Below, one piece after another: positions 25,366-46,418 of a stretch of DNA of 64,000 bases. The notes beneath the pieces are model-generated. The model was given only the letters and a program-made list of their open reading frames with translations, was not told the origin of the DNA and did not search any database. The position numbers were made by a program, and so were the translations under genes. Position 1 is the stretch's first letter; every line of letters starts with the position of its first letter. The DNA comes from Pirellulales bacterium (lineage in GTDB: Bacteria; Planctomycetota; Planctomycetia; Pirellulales; PALSA-1355): assembly GCA_963733035.1 (NCBI GenBank), contig CAVTBU010000005.1, forward strand, positions 288,001 to 352,000, given 5' to 3'.

Positions 25366-26595
25366 TTACTTTTCGGCGTTGGCCTTCGCGCGACCCGGCC
25401 AGAGATTGAGCAGCTTTTCCACCGCTCGGGCGCAGGTAGAGAGGTCCTTCGGATCCTGTTGAACGTCCTTGTCGCCGCACAGAGCGCCGGCCAGTTGTAC
25501 GACAGCCTGCGTGATCGCCGCCTTCGGGGCGTGCTCCAACAGCGGAACACCGTTATTGCGCACCTCGACCATCGTGCGGTAATCGTTTGGTAGCTGCCAG
25601 AAAATTTCGCGGCCGATTGTCTCCTGAGCCTTCTTAAGGCCGATATGGCTATCCAACCCCACCCGGTTAACCACGACCTTGACCTTATCCTTGATCGATT
25701 CCATCTGGCCGAACGACATCATCAGCCGCACGATGTTTCGCAGGCAAGGCAGGTCCAATTGCGTGACCAGCAGCACATGGTTGGCCATCTCCATCGCCAC
25801 CATGTCGATCGGACTGTAGCTCTTCGATAGGTCGATGATCAGATGCGTAAACGTGGCCTTCAGCAGACCGATCACACGCCGCATGTCGTCGGGAGTAATC
25901 AGCGCCGCGTCTTCCAACTGCACGGGCCGCGGCAATAGGTATAATCCGGACGAGTGTTTCGTCAACGAGCGTTTCAGCAGCGTGAAATCGAGCCGCGTTA
26001 CGTTTTGCGCCACGTCGACCAGTGTGTAATCGGGAATCGTGTCGAGAAACACGTCGGCGTCTCCCAGGCACAGATCCACGTCCAGAAGTGCCGCCGTGTT
26101 GCGCGGGTCGGAGGCAAACACGCAACCGAGATTCACCGCCAGACTCGTCGCCCCCACGCCGCCGGTGGCACCAGCCACGGCAATCACCGTGCTGCCGCGT
26201 GCGCGATCGCCGCGTCCAAATCGCTGTGCGCCGATGCGTTCGAGCGCCGCTACCAGGTCTTCCAGCCGCACGGGCTGAGGCAGAAATTCTTTCACGCCGC
26301 TGCGCATTGCGCGGAGGATCAAGTTTCCATCCGTCGACGAACTGATCACCACAATGCTGCACTCGGGCGACGTCTCGTGCAATTGACTTACGAGTTGCAG
26401 CGCCTTTTCGGGGTTGTGATTGAGCGACACGATGCCCACATCGGGATGCGTCTGGGCGACGACGTCGGAAAAGAACTCATAGCGTGAACACTCGGCCTCA
26501 AGCCACACCGTGTCCATGCCCAGCAGTGTCGATTTGAGTGCTTCACGCGATGCATCGACCGGGTCCACGATGGCCAATCGCAGGACGTTGCTCAT
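25366..26595 (-). CDS. cpaE: CpaE/TadZ (receiver-like + MinD-like domain)
   Basis: N-terminal receiver-like domain, degenerate Walker A GATGGVGATS, LPNDY. Confidence 0.9.
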   Translation of the reverse strand: MSNVLRLAIVDPVDASREALKSTLLGMDTVWLEAECSRYEFFSDVVAQTHPDVGIVSLNHNPEKALQLVSQLHETSPECSIVVISSSTDGNLILRAMRSGVKEFLPQPVRLEDLVAALERIGAQRFGRGDRARGSTVIAVAGATGGVGATSLAVNLGCVFASDPRNTAALLDVDLCLGDADVFLDTIPDYTLVDVAQNVTRLDFTLLKRSLTKHSSGLYLLPRPVQLEDAALITPDDMRRVIGLLKATFTHLIIDLSKSYSPIDMVAMEMANHVLLVTQLDLPCLRNIVRLMMSFGQMESIKDKVKVVVNRVGLDSHIGLKKAQETIGREIFWQLPNDYRTMVEVRNNGVPLLEHAPKAAITQAVVQLAGALCGDKDVQQDPKDLSTCARAVEKLLNLWPGRAKANAEK

Positions 26596-26686: not shown

Positions 26687-28459
26687 TTAATTCTTTACGT
26701 CATATCCGATGGGGCCGATGAAGCCCGGCGGAGCGGAATTCGCATTTGCGGCGCGCTCGCCGGCGCGTCGCTGGGGGTTAGTCGGATTGTAGGAGCCGGA
26801 ACGGGCCCCCGCCCCACTCGGGGGTTGAGCATAGCTGGGCCGTCGCGAGCTCGGGGCGGCGGCCGGCCCGTCGACCACGCGATCGCTCACAATCACGGCC
26901 CCCTTCGGCAAGGCCGCGCCCTGCGAGTCGGGAACCATTTCCGTGGGACCGGCCGGCGTCGGCACTACCTGTTCTGGCACCACCTGTTCCGGACCTGCAC
27001 CCGGCCCGCTTGGGCCAAAGGGGCTCGGGCCGCCTGCTGGGCCGTGTCCCATCGGCCCGTACGGCTGGACTGGTGTTTCGATGTAGCCCTTCCAGTAGAG
27101 TCCGCAGTCGTCTGGGATTTGGGTGCTCATTCCGGGAGCACAATTCGGAACCTGGTCGGGATCCATCGCCTCAACCAGTTCTGGGCGCACCATCACCAAC
27201 AACTCGACTTCGTTGATTCTACTTCGATTGCGGCGAAACGCCGCCCCGATATAGGGCATGTCCATCAGGTAAGGGATGCCGCGCTTTTGAGATTCCACAC
27301 GTTGCTGCAACAAACCAGCGATCGCCAGCGTTTGTCCGAACTTCATCTCCACGCCGGTATCCACGAAACGCTCGCGAAAGCCTGGCACCGACGTACCAGC
27401 AACGGTGATCGAAAGGGTTGGATCAAGTTCGCTCACCTGCGGGCGAACTTCGAGGCGAACTCCGCCGTTGCCCAGCACGATCGGCACAAAGTCGATTTGC
27501 GTACCAAAGGGTTTGAAATTGATCGAAATGTTGCCGAACCCGGTGGGCTGCGGGTACGGCATTTCACCGCCAACCAGATAGCTGGCCGGGCGACCGCTCA
27601 CGGTAACCAAGTTCGGTTCGGCCAGTACTTTCAGCAAGTCCTCTTGCTTGAGCGCGTCGAGAAACGCCACGAAGCCGCTCGGGTCGCTGACGATGCCCCA
27701 TTGAAATGTCTCGGCGTTACTGGTGGTGAAGGACGCGGCCGTTCGAAACAAGTTGGCCACGGGATTTGCCTTGGAAATTAGGCCGCTGGCCGTTGAACCG
27801 GCAAAATTAGCACCGGAAAAGTTGGCAAAATCGAAGCCCAGTTCCTTGAGGTTCGTTCGAGACACTTCCATCACCTTGACGTGCAGCAGCACTTGCTGCG
27901 TGCCGCCGACAATCATGTTGTTGATTACCTTAGGATAATAGTCCTCGGAGATGCGCATGATCGTGTTCACATGGTCGGCCCGATCGACGTAGCCCGACAG
28001 TACGAGCGTCGAGGCCTGCGTTGGGTACAGCTTGAGAGACGCGGCGGGAAACTGCGACTTAAGCAGGCCTTCCAACTCCCGAACGTCACCGACGATTACC
28101 ACGTCGACCGTATGCACCTCTTCCTTGTCGTCCCACAGGTTGACAGTCGTTATGCCCGGCTTCTTGGCGTGGATTTGCACCTCGTTTTCCGAAAGCACAG
28201 TGAACGCCAGCAACTCAGGGTTGCTCACCTGGGCACGGGGAATTGGCGACTCCATGCGCAGTATGCGGCTGCCGTTGACCGTCAGCTCAACCTTCGTGTT
28301 GGCCGCCGTGATGGTCTGCGTGACTAGCGGCGGTGTCGCAGGGGCTCGTGTCGAATCTTGAGGGGGCCCCTCTTGGGCACGAGCAGGCAGAGCTGCGAGA
28401 ATTGCAAGGGTTGCCGCGACCGCCAAACGGCGGCCGTGCCGGAATCGATGCAGTACCAT
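26687..28459 (-). CDS. cpaC: CpaC/RcpA secretin with Pro-rich C-terminal extension
   Basis: Signal peptide, GITTVNLWD, QVLLHVKVMEVSR, LAEPNL..SG..ASYLVGGE, GIPYLMDMPYIG. Confidence 0.92.
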   Translation of the reverse strand: MVLHRFRHGRRLAVAATLAILAALPARAQEGPPQDSTRAPATPPLVTQTITAANTKVELTVNGSRILRMESPIPRAQVSNPELLAFTVLSENEVQIHAKKPGITTVNLWDDKEEVHTVDVVIVGDVRELEGLLKSQFPAASLKLYPTQASTLVLSGYVDRADHVNTIMRISEDYYPKVINNMIVGGTQQVLLHVKVMEVSRTNLKELGFDFANFSGANFAGSTASGLISKANPVANLFRTAASFTTSNAETFQWGIVSDPSGFVAFLDALKQEDLLKVLAEPNLVTVSGRPASYLVGGEMPYPQPTGFGNISINFKPFGTQIDFVPIVLGNGGVRLEVRPQVSELDPTLSITVAGTSVPGFRERFVDTGVEMKFGQTLAIAGLLQQRVESQKRGIPYLMDMPYIGAAFRRNRSRINEVELLVMVRPELVEAMDPDQVPNCAPGMSTQIPDDCGLYWKGYIETPVQPYGPMGHGPAGGPSPFGPSGPGAGPEQVVPEQVVPTPAGPTEMVPDSQGAALPKGAVIVSDRVVDGPAAAPSSRRPSYAQPPSGAGARSGSYNPTNPQRRAGERAANANSAPPGFIGPIGYDVKN

Positions 28460-28578: not shown

Positions 28579-29703
28579 CTAACTAGTGGCCTGACTCTCG
28601 CCGTCCGTTCCTTCGTCCGCGCCGCCCTCCGGCCCCTGGGGTCCCTCCCCGTCAACTGGCGGCGGCACCGGGCTAAAACCACCCGGCATGTCGTTCATCG
28701 TCGGGTCCGGTCCGCTGCCACCCAAGTCACCGGGCCCTTGTTCGGTTTGCACAATGGGCAGCTCGCCGTCGCCGGGAATTTCAATGTTGACCAGTTCGGC
28801 CCCCATCATGACGAGCATGCGCCTTCGCTCTTGCGGCAACGGTGGAGCCGATGGCACCGGCGTCGACGGCCCAACGACTGATCCTCGGCCATTCTGCTGC
28901 GCGAGCCAGTCCGAGACATCGCTCGTTTCTTTTTCTGGCGTTGCTCTCTCGGCCACGCGATCAGACTTTTTTAACTCGTCGCCAAAGATATCACTGATCG
29001 TCGCCCCCTGGTCGACAATGTGTGCTTCGTCCTCGGGATTCCGCAACACCAAGCGCACGGCACCGCCAATTTCCGTTGCGGCATGCAAAATCACGGCCTG
29101 CTGCGGCGTTACCAAGAGCGAAATCGTCTTGGCGCTCATCGGTTCGGTCTGCTCATCCTTGGTCGCGGTGAATTCCGTCTCGGTCTGCGTGTCAACGGCA
29201 AACACTTTGATGTCTTGCAAGACAATCTTGGCGGCTGTCGCGTGAGAATCGCTGTTCGGATGGCGGAAGACCAGCACGTCGACTCGGTCGCCGGGCATAA
29301 TCAAATTGCTCGAACCGCCCACCGGATCAACTTTCACGTACGCCACACGGTAGCCAGGCGGAATGTCTTTGGCTGCGCCGACCATGTCCTCGGCGCCCAA
29401 CAGTTTCGAGGCCAGAATCGGTTCGCCGGCATACAGCTTCAGCCGCGTCCGTTTTCCTTCGACTTCCTCCAATTTCGTCAGCGCACCCTGCGGAACGATC
29501 TTCTTGGGCCATTCCTCGAGCTTCACGTTCTGCGCGGTTAGTTCCTCGTTCGGGCGAATGTCGGTCATTGCCACGAACACCGGCTGGCGTTCACTATCGT
29601 CGCCGACCTTGGAGCGCGCATCGAGAACCTGGCTAATGCCCATCGCGGCTACGGCACCGCAGCCCAACGCCAAAGCAACTAGCATGATCGATCTGGTGCG
29701 CAT
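28579..29703 (-). CDS. cpaB: CpaB/RcpC (SAF domain)
   Basis: N-terminal TM, VFVAMTDI, IPPGYRVA, PGDRVDVL, ISLLVTPQQA. Confidence 0.92.
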   Translation of the reverse strand: MRTRSIMLVALALGCGAVAAMGISQVLDARSKVGDDSERQPVFVAMTDIRPNEELTAQNVKLEEWPKKIVPQGALTKLEEVEGKRTRLKLYAGEPILASKLLGAEDMVGAAKDIPPGYRVAYVKVDPVGGSSNLIMPGDRVDVLVFRHPNSDSHATAAKIVLQDIKVFAVDTQTETEFTATKDEQTEPMSAKTISLLVTPQQAVILHAATEIGGAVRLVLRNPEDEAHIVDQGATISDIFGDELKKSDRVAERATPEKETSDVSDWLAQQNGRGSVVGPSTPVPSAPPLPQERRRMLVMMGAELVNIEIPGDGELPIVQTEQGPGDLGGSGPDPTMNDMPGGFSPVPPPVDGEGPQGPEGGADEGTDGESQATS

Positions 29704-30093
29704 GAATATCTCCCGGATCTCCGGCTGGCGACGCCTGCGACTGTTCGCTAGCACGCCTGCAAACTGGCGTGCAAACGAAGGGCCGCTTCGTCGTTTCACC
29801 TAGAACATTGGCGTCCACAGGCCATAAACTTGACAAAAAGCCCCCGAAAAGAATTGCCTTACTCGCGGTCCAGTTGTGGCGAGGCGGGAACAACCATAAG
29901 TGGCTGCGGGACTTGCAGCTGGGCGAGTCCCCACTCTCGTTTCGCCCACTCCCTCGCGTCGATCCCCTACGGATCGGTGGGGTGTGCCTGCTCGTCGGCC
30001 GGGAATACATTCCATCGGTCGCGGGCCAGGATTCATCGCTGCGAGCCAGCGTCGCATCAACGTCACCCTATACATGCCCCCTCGGGCGGCCGA

Positions 30094-30657
30094 TTACAGC
30101 AGCATCCCTTGGAAGGCGAAGTAGGCGATCGTGCCGATGGCGATCGGAATGCCGTACGGAAGCAAGAGCATTGTGCTCTTGCGCTCGGCGGCAATCGTCG
30201 CCAACTGCTCGGGATCGCGAATCGTAACCATCTCGTACCAGATTGTCAGAAACTGGAAGTAATGTTTCGTCCATGCACGGCGGTAAAGGACCATGAGTAG
30301 GGCGATCACGCCACCTACGATGGCCGAGACGCAAAACGCATAAAGCGTATCCCCCATGCCGATCCAGGCACCGACGCCGGCCAGCAATTTGACGTCGCCA
30401 GCCCCCATTCCGCCGATGGCGTAAGCCGGCAGCAAGAGCGCCAGCCCCACGACCATGCCCAACAGGGCCGCACCGAAACCCGCCCATCCGCCGGTGATGG
30501 CGCCCACTACCAGTCCGGTCAGCACGAACGGGAAGGTGAGCCAATTGGGAACCTTGAGCTTATAACCGTCGATGAGGGCGGCCACAATCAAGGTGATGGT
30601 GACGATCCAAACTCGCCAGTGTTCAATGAGGTGTTCGTTGAAGTTGGTTTCAAACAT
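30094..30657 (-). CDS. cpaA: CpaA/TadV prepilin peptidase (A24)
   Basis: ID..KVPNWL, GGMGAGDVKLLA, LPYGIPI; AAGGA SD. Confidence 0.93.
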   Translation of the reverse strand: MFETNFNEHLIEHWRVWIVTITLIVAALIDGYKLKVPNWLTFPFVLTGLVVGAITGGWAGFGAALLGMVVGLALLLPAYAIGGMGAGDVKLLAGVGAWIGMGDTLYAFCVSAIVGGVIALLMVLYRRAWTKHYFQFLTIWYEMVTIRDPEQLATIAAERKSTMLLLPYGIPIAIGTIAYFAFQGMLL

Positions 30658-31056: not shown

Positions 31057-31242
31057 CTAGCTGGCCGTGGTGCCCATCGAGCCGGCCACGTTGCTGAACG
31101 TGGTTTTGGCCTTCGAGCCCAACGAGGTAATTGCCGTCAAGCAGACGACGATGATCAATGCGAGCATCACCGCGTATTCGACTGCTGTGGGACCATCTTC
31201 CGAAACGAGGAAACGTTGCATCTTCTTGGCAAGGCTCTTCAT
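31057..31242 (-). CDS. flp: Flp family type IVb (Tad) pilin
   Basis: EDG|PTAVEYAVMLALI Flp motif; GGAGGA SD before ATG 31242; 61 aa. Confidence 0.96.
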   Translation of the reverse strand: MKSLAKKMQRFLVSEDGPTAVEYAVMLALIIVVCLTAITSLGSKAKTTFSNVAGSMGTTAS

Positions 31243-31527
31243 GGAATCCTCCGCTGCGGCCACTCGCACCCCGCGGGGTAAATATGCGAGCTATTGGCCG
31301 AAAATTGTCAGTGGGGCTGTTGCAACCGCGGTCCCGGCCTTGCGGCCGACACTCGCCTGCGTTGCGGTTACCCTGGCCCCAAATTCGAAACGATCGCCTC
31401 CCCAGACGAGACTTTCATCCGGGTCCACCGCACGAGCGGCTTCACCGGGGTGATTGTTTTGTCACGCACGCCGCGTACAAACGCGAGTGAACGCCACTCA
31501 CATTGACTGACGCGCGCGACAGACAGT

Positions 31528-31627
31528 CATCCCTTCGGTAGCCAGGCTGCCACGCCGCTTAATGAGGCGGACGTGGTCCACGGCTTTGCGTCCCGGCCTC
31601 GCGACCGGTTTGCCCTTCTCGAGGATG
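31528..31627 (-). ncRNA. c-di-GMP-I (GEMM-I) riboswitch aptamer
   Basis: Minus strand AAGGGCAAACCGGTC-GCGA-GGCCGGGACGCAAAGCCGTGGACC...GGCAGCCTGGCTACCGAA matches the class I consensus (GGCAAAC, GNRA loop, GGGACGCAAAGC, ACCGA). P1 is CATCCTCG/CGA(A)GGGATG. Confidence 0.92.
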
Positions 31628-31789
31628 AAGAGGCTGCAGGCCTCCCACGCAAGTGCCTTCGAAATGGCCCGATGTGACGGCGAAATTGGTTTGCCGGGAA
31701 TCCGGCCGCTTCGAAAGGTGCTTACGCTTTTCGATGTCCACCAGGGACATCTCGACGGTCGATGCTTTCGTACCGCCCGTCTACATTGA

Positions 31790-31817
31790 AAACTAGGTCG
31801 CATCCGCCGCTTGTCAA
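31790..31817 (-). promoter_or_regulatory. Putative sigma70 promoter for the riboswitch-flp transcript
   Basis: TTGACA-N16-TAGTTT on the minus strand; same boxes as the tRNA promoter at 55296. Confidence 0.55.
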
Positions 31818-31831
31818 ACTGCGAGTGAAAA

Positions 31832-33472
31832 CTATTCCGGGAATTTTTTTTGCCGCGTTTCAAAGACCGAAATCAGCGGTCGGCCAGCGTAGTCGAACAG
31901 CACTCGACGCTCCAACACCCCGTCGTGGCCATTCCGTCGTAGCTCGCGTTCAGTGGGGCTACCGACAAATTCCACGTACCAGGTGGTTCTAGAACGGCTA
32001 ACCGGCTCGGGTGCCAGCGGATCGATGGCTGATGCTGGCTCCCGTACGTCGACACTATGCTCGCCTTGCGCCAAATAGGCGAGCGGCCAGTAGAGCCACC
32101 ACTCACTGGCCACGATGCGGATCGCGTCCTCGGGTCCACGTTCGGCCAGGATTTTGCCTAAAGCAGCCAACTTCGGCTCGACCTTGGCTGTCCGAAATGC
32201 GCGATGCGAGAGTCCCCCACTCCGCTCGATGAACTCGAAGTATCCAAGGTAAAACATGAGCGGGAACAGCCCTCCGACGAGCAACAATCCCCAGGCCGAC
32301 GCTCGTGCCCAGGGCCGGGCAGGCTCGATCCACCACTCCAGTCCTCGCGAGAGAACGAGGGCCCCCGGCGCAACCAGGCAAATGCCGTAACGTTCGAGGT
32401 GCGGAACGATCGCGCCTGGCCCGGCCACCAGCGCGAATCCCAACAGCATGATCGACCAACCTAGGAGCAAACTAACATCGACAGCGTCTGCGCCGTGCAA
32501 GAGCCGTTGCACCAGTCCCCAGGCCCCAATCACCATGGCAAAGCCCAGAATCCAATTGCTCGCCAGCGGCAGCCAGACAAACGGCGCGAGTGCCTCCTTA
32601 GCGACCTCCACGCCTGAAATATATTCGTATACCGTCGCACCGCTCAGCAAACGCAAATAGTTCTGGCAAAACTCGCCAAATTCGCTGGGGCCATGTAGTC
32701 GAGTCACCAGGGTGGCCAATAACACCCAGGCGATATATACGACAATCGCGCTAATCGTCACGAGCCCGGCCAACGATCCAGGACGCGCGGGCAGGGCCGC
32801 TGTTCGCAGGCGCCAAATCAGTTGGTTCCGGCGGGCGTAAATAATCGGCACGACCAGCAGCGGTGTGGCAAAAATGTTCGTGGGGTGAACGATCAGTGCG
32901 GCCGCGAGTGCAACCATGGCCCCCAGCGGAAGCGGGCCGGCCGACGAGCGATGGCGCAGCCAGATGAGCGGCAGGTAGAGCACCACCACCGTGGCCAACA
33001 GGCTTTGGCTCGCATCCCAGCCCAGCCGACTGTAGGCGATGTTGATGGGCAGCGCCGCCAACAGCACAGTCGAAACCAAGGCGGTCCGGCAATCGAACGC
33101 CCGCCAACAAAGCCAGTAATTAACGACGAGTGACAGGATGCCACTTACGACTGCAACCGAACGTAGTACGACGAAAGACGGAGAAAAAACCGTGTGCAGA
33201 GCCGCCAACGGCAACAGAAAGAATACATTCACCGGGTTGCCGGTTGGCGTTCTCCAGGCAATGGGTTGCCCGTGTAACAGCCGCATTGCCTGCACGCCGG
33301 ACCAGGCTTCATCGCCGTTGATGCCCGGTAGATTGCCGAGTCTCCATATCCGTAGGAAACAGCACACCGTCAAAAGCAATACCGTTGCCGTCGCCAGCCA
33401 GAGCGATCCGCTGCCGCGCAATGACGTGTCCGGATCAGCAATGGCTCGAGGCGCTTCGCTAGTAGACGGCAT
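31832..33472 (-). CDS. GT-C fold membrane glycosyltransferase (GT39/ArnT-like)
   Basis: TM1 followed by PGINGDEAW acidic motif, YSRLGW, many TM segments. Confidence 0.75.
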   Translation of the reverse strand: MPSTSEAPRAIADPDTSLRGSGSLWLATATVLLLTVCCFLRIWRLGNLPGINGDEAWSGVQAMRLLHGQPIAWRTPTGNPVNVFFLLPLAALHTVFSPSFVVLRSVAVVSGILSLVVNYWLCWRAFDCRTALVSTVLLAALPINIAYSRLGWDASQSLLATVVVLYLPLIWLRHRSSAGPLPLGAMVALAAALIVHPTNIFATPLLVVPIIYARRNQLIWRLRTAALPARPGSLAGLVTISAIVVYIAWVLLATLVTRLHGPSEFGEFCQNYLRLLSGATVYEYISGVEVAKEALAPFVWLPLASNWILGFAMVIGAWGLVQRLLHGADAVDVSLLLGWSIMLLGFALVAGPGAIVPHLERYGICLVAPGALVLSRGLEWWIEPARPWARASAWGLLLVGGLFPLMFYLGYFEFIERSGGLSHRAFRTAKVEPKLAALGKILAERGPEDAIRIVASEWWLYWPLAYLAQGEHSVDVREPASAIDPLAPEPVSRSRTTWYVEFVGSPTERELRRNGHDGVLERRVLFDYAGRPLISVFETRQKKFPE

Positions 33473-33759
33473 GGAATACGGAAGGTCGTGTTCGTAGAGA
33501 AATCGGGGCCATCAAAGATAGCCTCGTCCTGCAATGTTCGCCGACGACGCCTTCCGTCGATCCCGGACCGCTGCGCCGCTACATTCGGTACAAGTTGCAT
33601 GGACTAGGAATTTCCCGCGATGAATGCGTTTGGCGGGCCTGCCCAACGTGCAGCATCGAGCTAAGTTTTCTCTGACCGGCACGACCGCTCGCTTTCAAAG
33701 TGCTCTGCCCACCGGCCGGCTTCCCCACCCGTAACAATTGCCACACCTGGAACGTTTGC

Positions 33760-34677
33760 ATGGATTTCCTTGCCACGATCCTCGAACGCCTGTCGGCCAG
33801 CGACCTGTGCGGCTATCAGCCCAAGGCCCCCGCAACGACCGAACCCACCGCGCTCGCCGCACTCGCCTTGTTCGCGCATGGTCGAGACCAAGCCGCCGAG
33901 CCTTTAGTGCAGCGTTTGCTCGAAATGCAGAACAATGACGGCAGCCTCGGAATTGATCGCCTTCAAGCGGAACCGGGCTGGCCCACCGGCTGGGCACTAC
34001 TTGCCTGGCGTGCCGCACAAAAGAGTTCGATCTTTGTCCCCGACTACCTGCGCGCGATCTTGCGCGGCAGAAACTGGATTCTCAACAACGCGGGAGACGT
34101 CGCGGACCCGGCCGGCTGGGGCGGACACGACACGAGCATGCACGGTTGGGCGTGGGTCGTGGGCACGCATTCGTGGGTCGAGCCCACCGCGATCAACTTG
34201 CTGGCACTTAAGCATAACGGCCAAGCGCACCACCGACGCGCTCGGGAAGCCGTCGCGTTGCTTGTCGACCGCTTGCTGCCGGATGGCGGCTGCAACTACG
34301 GCAACACGGTGGTCTTTGGCCAAACGCTCCGCCCCCATCTAGAACCGACAGGGATTGCCCTGCTGGCACTCCGGGAAGAGGAAGATCCCAGTGGCCGCCT
34401 CGACCGTTCCGTCAAATATTTGCAGCGCGAACTGAATGAACGCACCACAACCGCGTCGCTCTGCTACGGCCTGTTGGGCCTCGCGGCTCACGAGGCCTAT
34501 CCACCCGACGCGCCGCGATGGCTGGCGGCCGCCACTGACCGATCACTCAGACGTGACCCGTCGAGCTACAAGCTCGCGCTGATCGCGCTGGCCGCCCTGG
34601 GGTCCGCATGCCCATTGGTCTCCGATGTCTGGTCGCAGAATGAGACCCAATTGAACGAGGGATTGACCACGTCATGA
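33760..34677 (+). CDS. Prenyltransferase/squalene-oxidase repeat (alpha/alpha barrel) protein
   Basis: MQNNDGS, GWAWVVGTHSWVEPTA, DGGCNYGN, repeated EPTAxALLAL units; no signal peptide. Confidence 0.75.
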   Translation: MDFLATILERLSASDLCGYQPKAPATTEPTALAALALFAHGRDQAAEPLVQRLLEMQNNDGSLGIDRLQAEPGWPTGWALLAWRAAQKSSIFVPDYLRAILRGRNWILNNAGDVADPAGWGGHDTSMHGWAWVVGTHSWVEPTAINLLALKHNGQAHHRRAREAVALLVDRLLPDGGCNYGNTVVFGQTLRPHLEPTGIALLALREEEDPSGRLDRSVKYLQRELNERTTTASLCYGLLGLAAHEAYPPDAPRWLAAATDRSLRRDPSSYKLALIALAALGSACPLVSDVWSQNETQLNEGLTTS

Positions 34678-35711
34678 CGACCGCCACCGTTCCACCAATC
34701 GAAACCGGCCCCGAAATACAGGTCGACCGCCGCGCGCTTCTCATCGGCGCCGGCTTGGCCGCGGCCGGAGTCATGGCGCTACCGTTCCTGCGGCGGGCCT
34801 GGTACGATTCGGCCTCGGTGTTTGTGGCCCGCAACCAGCGCTATGACGGCCCGCTGGAACAAACCATCCGCGACGGTCTGTTGGCAACTGGCTTCAGCCC
34901 GGCTGCGATTCACGGCCGCAAGGTGCTGCTTAAGCCCAACCTCGTCGAACCAATTCGTAGTTGCCCACAAATGACCACCGATCCGGCGGTCGTCGTGGCC
35001 GCGGCTAATGTATTTCGCAATTGGGGCGCGAGCGTCGTCGTTGGCGAAGGTCCCGGTCACATGCGCGACACGGAAATGGCCCTGGTCGAATCGGGCCTGC
35101 AGGAAGCGCTGGACGACGCACGTTTACCGTTTGTCGACCTGAACTACAGCCAGGTGGGCTGGATGAAGAACGAGGGTCGCGCCACCGAGCTGCCCGGCTT
35201 TTTCTTTCCTCAGCACGTGATTGAAGCCGACTTGATCGTTTCGCTGCCCAAGATGAAAACCCACCACTGGGTTGGCTATACCGGGGCATTGAAGAACCTC
35301 TACGGCGTCATCCCAGGCGTCAAATACGGCTGGCCAAAAAACGTATTGCATTATGCCGGCATCCCCGAGTCGATTTACGACATCAATGCCACGCTTACGA
35401 AAACTGTCTCAATTGTCGACGGCATCCTGGCCATGGAAGGCGATGGTCCCATTATGGGCAGCCCCAAACCGATGGGACTGTTGTTGGTCGGCACGAACAA
35501 CACCGCCGTCGACGCGACGTTGGGCCGCATCATGGGTTTCGAACCAGCGAAAATCTCCTATCTGAAGCTCGCCGCTAACAAGCTTGGCCCCATCGACGAC
35601 TCGCTGATCGAACAGCAGGGTGAACGCTGGCACGACGTGGCCCACCCGTTCCAAATCATCGATGCCCCGCAACTGCAAGGGCTACGCCGCCGTGGCGTCC
35701 AGGTGACATGA
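34674..35711 (+). CDS. DUF362 domain protein with twin-arginine-like N-terminus
   Basis: LLKPNLVE, VGEGPGH, SLPKMKTHH..TGALKNLYG, DGILAMEGDGP; DRRALL + hydrophobic stretch; ATGA overlap with the upstream gene. Confidence 0.85.
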   Translation: MTTATVPPIETGPEIQVDRRALLIGAGLAAAGVMALPFLRRAWYDSASVFVARNQRYDGPLEQTIRDGLLATGFSPAAIHGRKVLLKPNLVEPIRSCPQMTTDPAVVVAAANVFRNWGASVVVGEGPGHMRDTEMALVESGLQEALDDARLPFVDLNYSQVGWMKNEGRATELPGFFFPQHVIEADLIVSLPKMKTHHWVGYTGALKNLYGVIPGVKYGWPKNVLHYAGIPESIYDINATLTKTVSIVDGILAMEGDGPIMGSPKPMGLLLVGTNNTAVDATLGRIMGFEPAKISYLKLAANKLGPIDDSLIEQQGERWHDVAHPFQIIDAPQLQGLRRRGVQVT

Positions 35712-37858
35712 GTTCGACGGCCAAGTTCAGCCCCGAGCGGCGATTGTCGGCCTGGATTTTGCTGGCCGCCGTCGGATGTTTCGTGGCCTTGGCGACCCCA
35801 TTTTTCGTTGGGCGAGTGTACGTGGCGGACGATCTGGGCGAGTTTCATCTGCCGGTACGTAACTTTTACGCCCAGCAACTCGCTCACGGAGAGCCGTTCG
35901 ACTGGATGCCTAGCCTCTACGGTGGCTTCTACGTCGCAGCCGAAGGCCAGCTCGGAAGCTATCACCCCTGGCACTGGCTACTATATCGCTTTCTACCGCT
36001 CGGTGCGGCATTTAACGTCGAGGTACTCGCCAGCTATCCCCTGCTCTTCGCGGGCACGTTTCTGTTCTTTCGGCGCCTCGTCGGCCGTCGCGATGCTGCA
36101 TTGTTTGGCGCGCTCACCTTCACGTTCAGTGGGTTCTGCTTGCTCCATTTCGTGCATCCGAATGCGATCGCTGTAGTCGCGCATTTGCCATGGATTCTGT
36201 GGGCGATCGACGTGGCTCTCTCGACGTCGAGCAACAAAGCCCGGGCCTGTGCTGAGTTGGCCGTGGGACTGCTCATCGCGTCGCAATTGCTGTTGGGCTA
36301 CCCGCAATTCGTGTGGCTGTCTCTACTGGCCGAGTTCGCCTTAGTGACTTGGCGTCTCTGGCGACATGAAGCGCGTGCGACCGGCATCGCTTGGCTTGCG
36401 GTGGCAGTTGTTGGCGGCGTGCTCGTCGGAGGTCTGCAATGGATCCCCACCTGGCACCTGCTTCGAGAATCAGTGCGACATGCCCCCGACGTGGCATTCG
36501 CCAACACTGGCTCCATGCACTTGCTAAACCTCGTGCAACTTGTCGGACCCTACCTGTTTAAAACCCGTGTCGTCGGCCAAAATACCCACGAACTAGGGCT
36601 CTATGTCGGCGCTGTGCCGCTTGTGTTGTGTGTTTGGCTACTGGCGCATCGCCAGCGGTGGGGAAGTTATCGCCCGCTGATTCGGGGATTGCTTATTTGC
36701 ACGGTCCTCGCGACGCTGCTGGCCGCTGGCGAATTCGGCGGGCTCTATCGACTGCAATCGCTAGTGCCGCTGGCCAATCGGTTTCGCTTCCCATGCCGGG
36801 CGATCGTGCTGGTGCAGCTTTGTGTGGCGGCGCTAGCGGCTGTCGGTGCGGCCTTGCTGTTCGCCCGCACGCAGGCCAGTTCCGTCGTCAGCGATTCCAA
36901 AAGCCGTTGGATCATCTATGTCGTGCTAGCGGCCGTCGCACTTGCGGTCACGGGACCGCTCTTTTGGCCAACCCATGTGGCCGCGCCATTGCTGATTTGG
37001 AGCGGCCCCCTGCTTGTGGGCACTGCCGCGGCATTGGTCGCCCTGACCGAACGTGGCATCCGTGCCGCCGCGGTTTGTCTCGCCCTGTTCACGGCTTTGG
37101 ATCTTAGCATCTACGGGCTGAGCTATTCGGTCTACGGGCGCACAGCCGACCTACATAGCTACGTCGGCCAGATCGCGCTTCCACCACCAGCCAACTCGCT
37201 CCGTGTCGCGGCGCCAGATCCTGGCGGAAATCTGCGCACGGGTGACCGGATGTTGCTGGCCGGCCTGAGTCGCGTCGACGGATATGCCGGATTGGAGCCC
37301 GCAAAACGTCTGGACTACCAGCAGCCGGAGGTACTCGCCCTGGCAGGAGTCGGTTGGATTCTAGAACCGGCACGGGATCGCTGGTGTACGAACCGCAATT
37401 GGCGAGCGATCTCTCCAACGGCGCCGCGCGTGAGGCTCGTCACGCAAACCATTTTGCAACAACCGGACCCTCGCGCCATGGTGCGCGACTGGAACACGGC
37501 AACTGCCGATCCGGCGATTGCGCTCGACGCAACCAACCCCGGCTCGGCCAAAGTCGTTGAAGACCGCCCAGGACGCATTGTCGTTGAAACGACCTGCGAC
37601 GAGGAACAACTGCTGGTCACCACCGAAAGCTTCGATTCCGGCTGGAACGCATCCATCGACGAACGGCCCGTGACGATCATTCGGGTTAATGAAGATTTTC
37701 TGGGTTGTCCGGTGCCGCGAGGGAACCATCGAGTAACGCTGGAATTTCGCCCGTTCGCGCGACGTTTGGGAGCCGCGATTTCCTGCTTTGGGCTAGGTTT
37801 ATTGATGCTGGCCGCGTGTGTTCGCGTGGCCGTTTCGCGACCGACTAGCGCGAACTGA
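35708..37858 (+). CDS. YfhO-family membrane protein (GT-C)
   Basis: DDL..FHLP, W.PSLYGG, FRFPCR, C-terminal ESFDSGWNASID..VPRGNHRVTLEF; ATGA overlap. Confidence 0.8.
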   Translation: MSSTAKFSPERRLSAWILLAAVGCFVALATPFFVGRVYVADDLGEFHLPVRNFYAQQLAHGEPFDWMPSLYGGFYVAAEGQLGSYHPWHWLLYRFLPLGAAFNVEVLASYPLLFAGTFLFFRRLVGRRDAALFGALTFTFSGFCLLHFVHPNAIAVVAHLPWILWAIDVALSTSSNKARACAELAVGLLIASQLLLGYPQFVWLSLLAEFALVTWRLWRHEARATGIAWLAVAVVGGVLVGGLQWIPTWHLLRESVRHAPDVAFANTGSMHLLNLVQLVGPYLFKTRVVGQNTHELGLYVGAVPLVLCVWLLAHRQRWGSYRPLIRGLLICTVLATLLAAGEFGGLYRLQSLVPLANRFRFPCRAIVLVQLCVAALAAVGAALLFARTQASSVVSDSKSRWIIYVVLAAVALAVTGPLFWPTHVAAPLLIWSGPLLVGTAAALVALTERGIRAAAVCLALFTALDLSIYGLSYSVYGRTADLHSYVGQIALPPPANSLRVAAPDPGGNLRTGDRMLLAGLSRVDGYAGLEPAKRLDYQQPEVLALAGVGWILEPARDRWCTNRNWRAISPTAPRVRLVTQTILQQPDPRAMVRDWNTATADPAIALDATNPGSAKVVEDRPGRIVVETTCDEEQLLVTTESFDSGWNASIDERPVTIIRVNEDFLGCPVPRGNHRVTLEFRPFARRLGAAISCFGLGLLMLAACVRVAVSRPTSAN

Positions 37859-37869
37859 GGACCTTTTTC

Positions 37870-38973
37870 ATGTTGCGACGCTCCCTCCGGGACACGCTGA
37901 TCACAGCCGTCCTGCCAGTCTACAACGAAGCCGCCGTGCTGGCCGAACTGTTTCGCCGCGTGCGCGATGCCATCGAAAAGTCCGGATCGCGACAGGAGAT
38001 TATCTTCGTCGACGACGGCTCCGACGACGGCAGCGAAGAGCTGCTCGATAACCTGGCGGCCGACCATCCGCAAGTACGCGTGATTCACCTGTCGCGCAAC
38101 TTTGGACATCAAGCCGCCGTTCAGGCGGGTCTCGCACACGCGCACGGTGACGTCGTGCTGCTGATGGACAGCGATATGCAGGATGCACCGGAAGCACTCG
38201 AGCGGTTTCTGCTGCAGTGGCAAGCAGGCTACGACGTTGTGTACGCCGTCCGCCGCGATCGGCCCGAGCAGCTTTGGAAGCGGATCCTGTTCGCGGGGTT
38301 CCACCGTACGCTTGCCGCGATTGCCGACACCGCTGTGCCGGTTGGGGCGGGCAACTTCAGCCTTATCGATGCCCGCGTGGTCGAAGCGATCGTCCGCATG
38401 GGAGAACGCGACCGCTACCTGCCGGGCCTGCGGTCCTGGGTCGGTTTTAAGCAGATCGGCATCGACGTGCGCCGATTGCCACGCTACGATAACCGTCCGC
38501 GTGTCTCGCTGCGCGGGCTGTGGAAGCTGGCTAAGACAGCCATCTTTTCGTTTTCGACATTCCCGCTTTTCGTGTTTACGTTGATCGGCTATTCGGCGTT
38601 GGCCGTGTTTCTGGGGCTGAGCGCGTTCTCGCTGTTCTGCAAGCTGTTTACGAACCTGGCAATTCCAGGCTGGACGTCGAACGTGCTGGTGGCCAGCTTC
38701 TTCGGCGCGGTCAATGCCCTGGGCATTAGCATGCTCGGGGAATATGTGGCTCGCATCTACGACCAGGTTCGTGGCCGACCGATGTACCTTGTCGATCGCG
38801 CTGTGAATCTCACGACTGAGCGTGAAACCTCGGGTAGTCTGACTTGCGCCGAAAAGGACCTGGCATATGAGCAGCTTTTGCGGGAAGCAAAGGAACTCGT
38901 GCAAATGGTCGAAGACCACGACGAAAAATACGACTCGCAGCGGTCCTTGCCGACCGGTGCTGTCGAAGGCTGA
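37870..38973 (+). CDS. GT2 polyprenol-phosphate glycosyltransferase (GtrB/CsbB-like)
   Basis: VLPVYNE, VDDGSDDGS, LSRNFGHQAA, MDSDMQDAPE, two C-terminal TMs, GEYVARIY..RPMY. Confidence 0.92.
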   Translation: MLRRSLRDTLITAVLPVYNEAAVLAELFRRVRDAIEKSGSRQEIIFVDDGSDDGSEELLDNLAADHPQVRVIHLSRNFGHQAAVQAGLAHAHGDVVLLMDSDMQDAPEALERFLLQWQAGYDVVYAVRRDRPEQLWKRILFAGFHRTLAAIADTAVPVGAGNFSLIDARVVEAIVRMGERDRYLPGLRSWVGFKQIGIDVRRLPRYDNRPRVSLRGLWKLAKTAIFSFSTFPLFVFTLIGYSALAVFLGLSAFSLFCKLFTNLAIPGWTSNVLVASFFGAVNALGISMLGEYVARIYDQVRGRPMYLVDRAVNLTTERETSGSLTCAEKDLAYEQLLREAKELVQMVEDHDEKYDSQRSLPTGAVEG

Positions 38974-38994
38974 TCGCCCAGGCGCCCGCGACAG

Positions 38995-40080
38995 CTATGC
39001 CAAGAGCGCGCTTCGTTTCCACGAGGCAGTCCAAGCAGCACGCAGAACCGCAGGTGTCCGCGACGCCGTCAAACATAGCAGCGGTGCGATCTGCGATCCC
39101 CAGTATTGATTGAACTCGTTGCCCACGATGGCAAACGCCAGCGTGTAAGCAGCCACAGTCAAGCCAATCAACCGGCCAGCGGAGCTGTTCCAGGTGGCGG
39201 CTCCCAGCAGCGCACAAGCAAAATAGATGCCCGTCACCCATTGCGGCAATAGCAGCAGGTAGGCGTTCAACTGGGCGGTGGCGACAAGGAAGCCCGCGCC
39301 GCCAAAGCGAATCCAGCCGGCCTCGTGGGCCGTGGCATCGCCACCGATTCGTGGCAACACTTGCTGCGCATGAAGCCAGTAGAACACGCCGTAGGCGACC
39401 AAACCCACCGCCCAGACGCCGATTTCTCGGTAGCGATGCTGGCCAATCGCCAACAACAGGCAGACCACCACGTACGGCGCCGCCAATTCTCGAAAGAAGA
39501 GTGCGGCCAGCCCCACGGCAATCGCGGCCTTGCGACGCTCGAGCCCATAGCAAACGGCCGAGGTGGCGACCAGTACTCCCGACCACAATTCCGAAAGCAG
39601 CACCGGTTCGCCAAGGAAGCATGGCAGCAGCGCCCCACTAAGAAGCACCACGCAAGCCATACCCTGCAACGGCCCCCCTTCATCCGCCAGCAATGTAAAG
39701 GCAAGCAGGACGAGCGTCAGGCCGAGCACGACCAACATGGCGTTGGCCACTAGCATCTCGGGCAATTGCGCCACAAGCCACACCGGCAGGGGCGTGCGCC
39801 AGTTGAAGATGCTTCGCGTGGGATAGCCCCGGACCACAAGTTCCGCCGCGGCGGCGTCGTAATACGACTCTCCGGCATGCATTCTCGCGACTTCCGCCGC
39901 ATAGAGTCCCAAATCCCCCGGTCCACGATCCGGCGCGTCCGCGTACCCTTGAGCGAGAGGCGAAACGGCGATGCCCACGAAAAACGCGGCAGTCAGTAGG
40001 AATAGCGCCAACAGCACACGTGCGTGTGCGCGCTCGCCCACCATTTCAGACGCGTGCCGTACGACCGAAGCCATGCCCAT
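38995..40080 (-). CDS. Multi-pass membrane protein, possibly GT-C-like
   Basis: TM1 then GDLGLY..GESYY..FNWRTP loop, RE motif, ~10 TMs; start uncertain. Confidence 0.6.
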   Translation of the reverse strand: MGMASVVRHASEMVGERAHARVLLALFLLTAAFFVGIAVSPLAQGYADAPDRGPGDLGLYAAEVARMHAGESYYDAAAAELVVRGYPTRSIFNWRTPLPVWLVAQLPEMLVANAMLVVLGLTLVLLAFTLLADEGGPLQGMACVVLLSGALLPCFLGEPVLLSELWSGVLVATSAVCYGLERRKAAIAVGLAALFFRELAAPYVVVCLLLAIGQHRYREIGVWAVGLVAYGVFYWLHAQQVLPRIGGDATAHEAGWIRFGGAGFLVATAQLNAYLLLLPQWVTGIYFACALLGAATWNSSAGRLIGLTVAAYTLAFAIVGNEFNQYWGSQIAPLLCLTASRTPAVLRAAWTASWKRSALLA

Positions 40081-40218
40081 CCAATGCCGAGAAAAGTGCC
40101 TATCAACCAGCACTCAACCCTAGCACCGTGCCTGGGCCCTCCGAAAGGAAGCACGTCCCACAAAGGCGTTCCGAGCGGTTCCCTTGCTGCACTTGCAATC
40201 CCTACAATCGCGCGGACC

Positions 40219-46169: not shown

Positions 46170-46418
46170 GGGACACCTCAACGTTGTATGGGAGAGTGTT
46201 TTGACTGAGATTGGTGCGGCCGATCGCCTTCCTGTTCCAACCACACGCGGGGGGAGGTGCTTGGCGGACATTCTAATCGAATGGCAAGCTCGCCTCCATG
46301 CCGATTGCCCAGCCACTTTACGCCCGACAGCGTGCTACGAGAAGATTCGCCCCGTTTCGCCCGATCTTGGCAAACGTGGCACGAAAAAACCTCGACCCGG
46401 ATGGTGAGGACGAAAAGA

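Follow-up and report, generated by a model that had tools for sequence, protein, structure and literature searches.

In a 64,000-nucleotide stretch of a Pirellulales genome (assembly GCA_963733035.1, contig CAVTBU010000005.1, positions 288,001 to 352,000; hereafter the window), two overlapping genes beside a Tad/Flp pilus locus encode an α/α-barrel protein and a DUF362 protein. The two genes are a strict two-gene unit that is independent of the sugar-transferase genes around it. The presence of the pair co-varies with the C-terminal serine of the Flp pilin, that is, with a β-hydroxy last residue (Ser, rarely Thr). Because the pair is found almost only where Flp ends in serine, it probably modifies the end of the pilin. 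The reading we favour, with a probability of roughly 0.55, is that the pair is an enzyme exported by the twin-arginine translocation (Tat) system, bears a cofactor, and acts on the C-terminal Ser/Thr of Flp. The barrel–DUF362 pair is an undescribed, pilin-linked module, and the genes gathered around the Tad/Flp pilus locus form a mosaic of modules that can be separated, not one system. The pair and the pilin are encoded as follows.

33760..34677 (open reading frame from 33700), plus strand: signal-less (α/α)6 barrel protein, 305 aa, first gene of the pair; assigned from its structure model and fold matches
34674..35711, plus strand: DUF362 protein, 345 aa, with a twin-arginine N-terminus and a LarA-like fold, second gene of the pair; PF04015, 1.1e-44
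31057..31269 (likely start 31242), minus strand: Flp pilin; PF04964 (Flp_Fap), 37.4 bits against a cut-off of 32.2

Pairing of the two genes and the C-terminal residue of Flp

A search with an alignment of the barrel found 294 relatives in species-representative genomes, and the 80 best loci, with flanks of 10 kb, were retained. Neighbours were counted by tblastn with the window proteins, and all-against-all clustering of open reading frames gave similar counts. The best 80 loci come only from Planctomycetota, and the link between the pair and Flp is thus assessed within Planctomycetota. Two loci labelled Conexibacteraceae and Granulosicoccus (L096 and L110) show the typical flp–barrel–DUF362 arrangement of Pirellulales and are probably mis-binned or mislabelled.

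The DUF362 gene lies directly downstream of the barrel gene, on the same strand, in 79 of the 80 species loci; in the 80th, the contig ends. The same adjacency is seen in all three barrel-positive genomes from other classes of Planctomycetota. Among 41 relatives, 35 have both genes and six have neither, so that the presence of one is identical to the presence of the other. In the window, the DNA itself shows that the two genes overlap in an ATGA at 34674–34677.

The Flp protein of the window has the processing motif G/xxxxEY and a tail rich in Ser and Thr whose last residue is serine, and a gene for an A24 prepilin peptidase lies 400 bp away. Together with the Flp_Fap match, these features place it among the Flp/Tad (type IVc) pilins. 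A motif scan finds flp in 46 of the 80 loci, and the pilin ends in Ser in 44 of the 46 and in Thr in the other two. The A24 gene is near the barrel gene in 44 loci and the CpaB gene in 43, and 45 loci have one or the other at a distance of up to 10 kb. In at least 16 loci that lack the PMT_2-like transferase gene of the window (see below), flp lies about 0.85–1 kb upstream of the barrel gene in divergent orientation.

To cover the order, 151 Pirellulales genomes at least 85% complete were sampled. The barrel is present in 96 of them and Flp in 133. Flp is present in all 96 barrel-positive genomes vs 37 of the 55 barrel-negative ones, the remaining 18 having neither. The ends of the best Flp genes were read from fetched DNA for these 37 barrel-negative genomes plus G030, and for 34 of the 96 barrel-positive genomes, chosen because they rank high in the hit table and belong to families other than that of the window. 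The 34 barrel-positive genomes hold 40 Flp proteins, 38 ending in Ser and two in Thr, and a Ser-ending Flp is present in 32 of the 34. The 38 barrel-negative genomes hold 49 Flp proteins, of which four, from three genomes, end in Ser; the last residue of the others is Pro, Gly, Asn, Lys, Thr, Val, Ala, or yet another.

The same rule is seen at closer range. In six families with barrel-positive and barrel-negative members (f4, f12, f18, f117, f118, and f122), every sampled barrel-positive genome has a Ser-ending Flp (in one case Thr-ending), and a single sampled barrel-negative genome (G393, in f118) has one as well. The rule is also kept in genomes where flp and the pair are unlinked (G341, G342, G344, G037, G358, G364, and G400).

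Beyond the order, the barrel was found in three of 300 other sampled Planctomycetota, along with weak partial matches to long proteins. The window Flp used as query gave no match in G061, G144, and G184, where Flp genes were therefore sought with the Pfam model. G184 belongs to another class; about 1 kb upstream of its barrel gene, by TadE/G, A24, and CpaB genes, are two Flp-like genes whose products end in Gly-Ser, and the remaining Flp paralogues end in Arg. Loci L143:5763-7202 (minus strand) and L253 show that a planctomycete of another class, with GC-rich DNA, has two or more Flp subfamilies. One of them has long Gly/Ala-rich tails ending in Gly-Ser and is encoded both beside the pair and elsewhere in the genome, whereas Arg is the last residue in the others.

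Folds and motifs of the two proteins

The barrel protein most likely starts at 33760 (305 aa) rather than at 33700, and its homologues are 295–305 aa long. Its structure model (pLDDT 93.5, pTM 0.91) has about 12 helices and superimposes on squalene cyclase (1gsz) with a VIA Z of 24.6, identifying a true (α/α)6 barrel; the first-pass annotation had proposed an α/α barrel from the sequence. Further matches are drimenyl diphosphate synthase (Z 23.8), the hydrolase MmpH (22.6), the farnesyltransferase β subunit (18.4), and, at Z 20–22, glycoside hydrolases and sugar epimerases (GH76 and cellobiose 2-epimerase, about 21). Foldseek adds the thioester domains of α-2-macroglobulin and complement. The rows at Z 20–24 are mixed, and the modelled fold does not separate lipid-type from sugar-type ligands.

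The barrel shares its fold with terpene cyclases and prenyltransferase β subunits, together with weak sequence matches of the QW-repeat type, but differs from them in being a single 305-aa barrel with no DxDD motif found in its sequence and with scores under the Pfam and NCBIfam cut-offs (SQHop_cyclase_C, 20.9 bits against 26.1; TIGR01787, 22.4 bits against 322.7). It matches glycoside hydrolases and sugar epimerases of this fold equally well. It was not assigned to the class II terpene cyclases or prenyltransferases, with which it has only the fold in common. In the orthologue alignment, W130, W132, W139, E141, R160, R171, N179, and N182 are invariant, and the residues of the cavity (Trp, His, Arg, Asn, and Glu) are invariant as well. 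A search of cluster representatives gave 2223 matches at E ≤ 1e-3, and the best 150 of the 2223 are all close relatives. A 736-aa 'longer' homologue was considered as a fusion and rejected, its middle part being out-of-frame junk and hence an artefact.

DUF362 (PF04015) is an old, widespread domain of unknown function. The model of the DUF362 protein (pLDDT 85.6) shows an N-terminal helix (residues 19–43) and a two-lobed α/β body. In Foldseek, the top 14 matches are all LarA, malate racemase, or LarA-like proteins (E 8.5e-6 to 1.5e-4, TM 0.37–0.47), and the first match of another kind follows at 2.3e-3, indicating a fold like that of LarA, the nickel-pincer nucleotide lactate racemase. When profiles of 41 orthologues of DUF362 and of the genome's own four LarA homologues are aligned by hhalign, the match has a probability of only 49.5% (E 1.7e-4) and spans 39 columns; in it, two invariant DUF362 residues, His197 and Lys207, fall at the positions of LarA1 His174 and Lys184. 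In the available text on LarA1 (PMC11770544), His174 is catalytic, Lys184 tethers the nickel-pincer cofactor, and His200 is a nickel ligand; DUF362 has His226 where His200 would sit, as counted by spacing and not by a tool. The orthologues have a mean column identity of 63%, with many invariant His, Lys, Asp, and Glu residues.

The Pfam scan assigns the protein to PF04015 only and not to Lar_N (PF09861); the two families are placed in one Pfam clan, CL0471, by the same source (PMC11770544, available text). Fold and clan are thus shared with the LarA superfamily, and the His...Lys motif aligns at the low probability given above. Unlike LarA, the protein is not a Lar_N member, is about 80 residues shorter, matches none of the solved LarA proteins in sequence, is always partnered by a barrel, and carries a twin-arginine N-terminus.

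This N-terminus, in which [D/S/N]-R-R-x-L-L precedes a hydrophobic stretch rich in Gly and Ala and then a basic residue, is conserved in the orthologues read, and R19 and R20 are invariant among the 41 aligned. The genome encodes TatC (169.9 bits). The Pfam scan gives no TAT_signal match; the motif, the hydrophobic region, and the presence of the machinery agree with a Tat substrate. The protein is therefore probably extracytoplasmic. No convincing signal-peptidase site is conserved when the orthologue alignment is read, so the helix may stay as an anchor.

LarC (PF01969; C6:893512 in this genome) is encoded in 136 of the 151 Pirellulales genomes, including all 96 barrel-positive ones; its presence in every pair-bearing genome searched is a further likeness to LarA, though one that discriminates little. 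The genome has four Lar_N (LarA-like) paralogues at C5:850626, C5:1019258, C6:406505, and C6:490574, the best of which matches the solved broad-spectrum lactate racemase of Isosphaera pallida at 1.6e-130. The four paralogues and LarC indicate that the nickel-pincer cofactor is both produced and employed by this organism. About 310 kb from the DUF362 gene of the pair lies that of another DUF362 protein (427 aa, PF04015 1.2e-33; C5:633601-634359, L127:1156-2439).

Separable modules around the pilus genes

The remaining genes of the locus are listed below.

25366..26595, minus strand: TadZ/CpaE-like ATPase with a receiver domain (Tad locus); Pfam Response_reg, CbiA, and TadZ_N (weak)
26687..28459, minus strand: Tad secretin of the RcpA/CpaC type; Pfam Secretin 1.7e-36, T2SS-T3SS_pil_N 1.9e-15
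28579..29799, minus strand: CpaB/RcpC; Pfam RcpC 2.2e-22, SAF 8.3e-14
30094..30657, minus strand: prepilin peptidase A24 of the TadV/CpaA type; Pfam Peptidase_A24 1.3e-18
31832..33472, minus strand: PMT_2-like GT-C membrane glycosyltransferase, 546 aa; PMT_2 E 1e-3 (19.8 bits, cut-off 26.1)
35708..37858, plus strand: YfhO-like GT-C membrane glycosyltransferase, 716 aa; PF09586 61.3 bits (cut-off 28.5)
37870..38973, plus strand: GT2 polyprenyl-phosphate glycosyltransferase (PgfS/ArnC/GtrB type), 367 aa; PF00535 2.7e-34
38995..40113, minus strand: polytopic membrane protein outside known families, 372 aa; assigned from conservation, its GT-C likeness being a lead only

The six open reading frames from the PMT_2-like gene to the 372-aa gene are all present at the positions that the first-pass annotation had given them. 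Its claim of tight coupling holds in the DNA as well: besides the barrel/DUF362 overlap at 34674, the DUF362 and YfhO genes overlap in an ATGA at 35708–35711, and an 11-nt spacer precedes the GT2 start ATG at 37870. The minus-strand Tad group (flp, A24, CpaB, secretin, and TadZ) lies directly upstream of the six, and the PMT_2-like gene is upstream of flp and shares its strand.

Despite this coupling, the six genes are not one envelope-modification system, as they had been taken to be. YfhO is near the barrel gene in 26 of the 80 loci, the PMT_2-like gene in 25, a close GT2 in 24, and the 372-aa gene in 19; any of them is found near the pair in 28 loci. The other 52 loci have none of the four within 10 kb, or 43 when nine loci are counted that have a distant GT2 (31–34% identity, mostly upstream and divergent). 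A general co-occurrence of the pair with GT2 and GT-C genes, to which the earlier proposal was tied, is thus largely absent in Planctomycetota. In other families, the neighbours of the pair are unrelated (penicillin amidase, MFS, AcrB, amidase, and others).

Genome content agrees with gene order. YfhO is found in 31 of the 41 relatives and was not found in five pair-bearing genomes that are 94–99% complete (G025, G028, G029, G035, and G039). Conversely, the pair-less genome G033 (L240, G033:C2:8000-27000) has TadZ–secretin–CpaB–A24–Flp, YfhO–GT2, the 372-aa gene, and a nucleoside symporter in the order of the window, from which only the PMT_2-like, barrel, and DUF362 genes are missing. The last residue of its Flp is Ala, not Ser. 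In G037, three separate contigs carry the pair with the PMT_2-like gene, YfhO–GT2, and Tad/Flp. These separations indicate that the 'operon' of the window is a lineage-specific juxtaposition of separable modules.

The transferase genes look like a polyprenyl-phosphate-sugar glycosylation set of known kind, and the GT2 plus GT-C logic of the first-pass annotation fits them. The GT2 aligns with NCBIfam profiles almost end to end, with PgfS (2.3e-54, positions 3–304 of 308) and with the ArnC type (4.6e-43, positions 8–313 of 316). Two hydrophobic C-terminal stretches, read from the sequence, complete the features of a polyprenyl-phosphate GT2. The scores are below the equivalog cut-offs (500 and 529 bits), and the protein therefore belongs to no named orthologue group. 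In YfhO, PF09586 aligns with residues 613–692 only (profile positions 755–835, the C-terminal 80 aa), leaving the N-terminal membrane part unmatched; weak NCBIfam matches to PgfM1 and PgfM2 and a D-D in the first loop, read from the sequence, are also present.

The 546-aa protein had been called GT39-like. The PMT_2 match of the window protein itself is below the cut-off, and the assignment to PMT_2/GT-C comes from its orthologues, 15 of 18 of which match PMT_2 (PF13231) at E ≤ 0.01 (best 3.2e-7; one scores 28.0 bits), and from an acidic first-loop motif. In the orthologue alignment, N-G-D-E-A-W is invariant in this loop, with G-D-E after the first helix. The 372-aa protein is a membrane protein as claimed; profiles did not verify its claimed GT-C nature. 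It has no Pfam or NCBIfam match, none of its 14 orthologues (mean column identity 62%) matches any relevant Pfam family, and hhalign against the PMT_2-like profile gives a probability of 0.6%, i.e. no support. The nearest named ESM Atlas clusters are PMT_2, GT87, and PIG-V (0.94–0.95, 141–159 shared features), which is a lead only. The gene accompanies YfhO–GT2, in G033 too.

No GtrA-type gene is present in the window, in line with the earlier remark that the locus has no recognisable flippase; the sole PF04138 match of the genome is on contig C2, the window being on contig C5. Flipping of the carrier would need another protein, perhaps the 372-aa protein or the distant PF04138 gene product. 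In the scheme we propose, the GT2 would load a sugar onto polyprenyl phosphate in the cytoplasm and, after flipping, the GT-C enzymes would move it to an acceptor outside the cytoplasm. Because YfhO–GT2 adjoins flp even where the pair is absent, the most likely acceptor, judged from gene position only, would be the Ser/Thr-rich periplasmic tail of Flp. The position of these genes thus suggests Flp glycosylation in the family of the window. The first-pass annotation had listed Flp among possible targets; this is sensible, flp, A24, and CpaB adjoining the pair here and in 43–46 of the 80 loci. A role of the pair in tailoring the lipid-linked sugar or its carrier is not supported.

In the available texts, CsbB/GtcA/YfhO (acting on lipoteichoic acid), GtrB/GtrA/Gtr, and PgfS/PgfM1/PgfE/PgfM2 are described as three-component glycosylation systems (PMC5836110, PMC7389260, PMC5856776, 10.1101/2022.10.10.511621), and Pgf, which acts on Streptococcus mutans adhesins, as glycosylating Ser/Thr-rich surface proteins (PMC5856776, 10.1101/2022.10.10.511621). 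The transferase genes here, which are of this already known kind, likewise combine a polyprenyl-phosphate-type GT2 with GT-C enzymes of the YfhO and PMT_2 types. Unlike those systems, the set has no GtrA/GtcA flippase at the locus, belongs to a Gram-negative planctomycete, lies beside a Tad/Flp locus, and includes an extra 372-aa membrane protein of no known family; unlike Pgf proper, it scores far below the equivalog cut-offs (184.7 vs 500 and 27.3 vs 1400).

Two further reading frames were seen in the window. A 121-aa frame between the PMT_2-like gene and flp (31498–31863, minus strand) has no Pfam match; a short piece of it is kept at the same position, at 40–85% identity, in 14 of the 80 related loci. 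Either a small gene or a conserved stretch that regulates flp from upstream may account for it. At 43752–46316 (minus strand), an 854-aa protein combines an AhpC/TSA-redoxin domain, a weak cytochrome c match (cbb3-type), and a C-terminal GAF-like region, an unusual mix.

Action on the pilin and alternative readings

Under the favoured reading, the DUF362 protein would be loaded with its cofactor in the cytoplasm and then exported in folded form by Tat. It may stay anchored via its uncleaved signal helix, near the short, Ser-ending tail of the membrane-embedded pilin. The barrel could be co-exported bound to DUF362 or could act on the cytoplasmic side. Protein prenyltransferase barrel subunits hold C-terminal CaaX peptides, and by analogy with these β subunits, we guess that the barrel holds the C-terminal peptide of the pilin.

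The chemistry is more speculative. LarA catalyses proton-coupled hydride transfer at the hydroxyl-bearing carbon beside a carboxylate, as described in the available text (PMC11770544). In a C-terminal Ser/Thr, the hydroxyl would sit one carbon further from the free carboxylate, and its transient oxidation might lead to epimerisation, decarboxylation, or an aldehyde. In its most specific form, this would make DUF362 the first extracytoplasmic enzyme of the nickel-pincer type, exported by Tat, with the barrel as its peptide-binding subunit, rewriting the C-terminal Ser of Flp by transient oxidation of the β-hydroxyl. The Ser might then be epimerised from L to D, lose its carboxylate in a redox-neutral step that leaves an ethanolamide end, or become an aldehyde that serves in cross-linking. 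We consider this specific form unlikely.

The nearest precedents for the residue rule are TfpO (PilO, Pseudomonas aeruginosa 1244) and TfpM (Moraxellaceae). According to the available text (PMC9829042), the genes of these enzymes adjoin that of a type IV pilin, whose C-terminal Ser or Thr is modified in the periplasm. The enzymes themselves differ: TfpO and TfpM are polytopic membrane O-oligosaccharyltransferases of about 420–470 aa, which take glycans from lipid carriers and attach them to type IVa pilins, whereas the pair consists of a soluble barrel and a LarA-fold protein, and the target would be a 45–50 aa Flp pilin. Pfam scans of the six proteins gave no Wzy_C-type match, which places none of them with TfpO/TfpM. 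Searches of the literature, subscription journals not being covered, found no link between DUF362 and pili by title or abstract, nothing joining Flp pilin to a squalene-oxidase-repeat protein, and nothing joining the nickel-pincer nucleotide to twin-arginine.

Several observations weigh against the favoured reading. Direct action on the pilin is deduced from covariation, the sampled genomes are related, so the counts are not independent, and the 34 barrel-positive genomes were not a random draw. Ser-ending Flp also occurs in barrel-negative G352, G363, and G393, of which G363 may be explained by an incomplete assembly (790 contigs; both other sampled members of its genus have the barrel). In about 34 of the 80 loci, the pair has no flp or Tad gene within 10 kb. 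Pair-bearing G061 and G144 have only weak Flp candidates, ending in Lys or Arg; either the rule is broken there, or the true partner pilin was missed. The barrel has no signal peptide in any orthologue examined. At L064:9920-11929 (plus strand; a single case in one assembly), the two genes form one in-frame 669-aa reading frame with the RR motif internal. Either this fusion is real or a stop codon was lost in the long-read assembly; if real, it would favour a cytoplasmic barrel with a signal-anchor over co-export. Regarding the cofactor, phmmer and profile searches against PDB sequences found no match of DUF362 to solved LarA, the aligned motif has the low probability given above, and LarC, with its presence in 136 of 151 genomes, hardly discriminates. 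In addition, the structure of the Caulobacter Tad pilus, as far as the available text goes, shows no density for pilin modification (PMC10710030).

The first-pass annotation had the pair working in the glycosylation pathway, where it would tailor the polyprenyl-linked sugar or its carrier, for example by periplasmic epimerisation of the lipid-linked sugar. The ATGA overlap of DUF362 and YfhO and the head-to-tail order of four genes in the family of the window speak for such a role, as do the conservation of the full set in 24–26 of the 80 loci and the presence of terpene cyclases and prenyl-binding enzymes among the best fold matches of the barrel. In addition, LarA relatives are epimerases (PMC11770544) and the Pgf system has an epimerase as well (10.1101/2022.10.10.511621), both according to the available texts. 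Tailoring is nevertheless unsupported by the wider comparison and seems to us improbable: 52 loci have the pair and no transferase-set gene within 10 kb, five pair-bearing genomes yielded no YfhO, G033 keeps YfhO, GT2, and the 372-aa gene by flp with no pair, and the pair follows the last residue of the pilin, not the transferases.

Covariation and synteny would also fit if the pair were an accessory of pilus assembly or regulation with no enzymatic action on the pilin, for instance a periplasmic or cytoplasmic factor that recognises pilins with a terminal Ser and helps to sort, stabilise, or quality-check them, and the barrel has neither a signal peptide nor a recognised catalytic motif (no DxDD). 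Against this stand the 63% mean column identity of DUF362 with its many invariant His, Lys, Asp, and Glu residues, the alignment of its His197 and Lys207 with the LarA motif, and the invariant cavity residues of the barrel. The invariant residues and the aligned motif look like active sites, and we regard an accessory role as quite unlikely. The least probable of the readings, in our view, separates the pair from pili altogether and makes it a Tat-exported enzyme of some other periplasmic metabolism, with the barrel as partner or chaperone and the proximity of flp as inherited gene order. The roughly 34 loci with no nearby Tad or flp gene would be expected in that case, and gut metagenomes contain fusions of DUF362 with CBM9 and dockerin, according to the available text (PMC5742341). 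Such a role would leave unaccounted for the presence of Flp in 96 of 96 barrel-positive vs 37 of 55 barrel-negative genomes, the Ser rule in six mixed families and in genomes with unlinked pair and flp, and the recurrence of the flp–barrel–DUF362 layout in another class.

Many bacteria adhere and form biofilms by means of Tad/Flp pili, whose tiny pilins are regarded as little modified. In the available text on the Tad pilus structure, the C-terminus of the pilin forms the surface of the filament (PMC10710030). That the presence of the pair predicts the last residue of the pilin points to an undescribed maturation step at this surface-exposed end. Culturable Pirellulales exist for the pair, a related locus (L083) coming from a complete Anatilimnocola genome. 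If action of the pair on the pilin is true, it would give a first functional foothold for DUF362 (PF04015) and would place LarA-type cofactor chemistry possibly outside the cytoplasm. Should the nickel-pincer form of this reading hold as well, it would define a new class of pilin maturation and a first function for the large DUF362 family.

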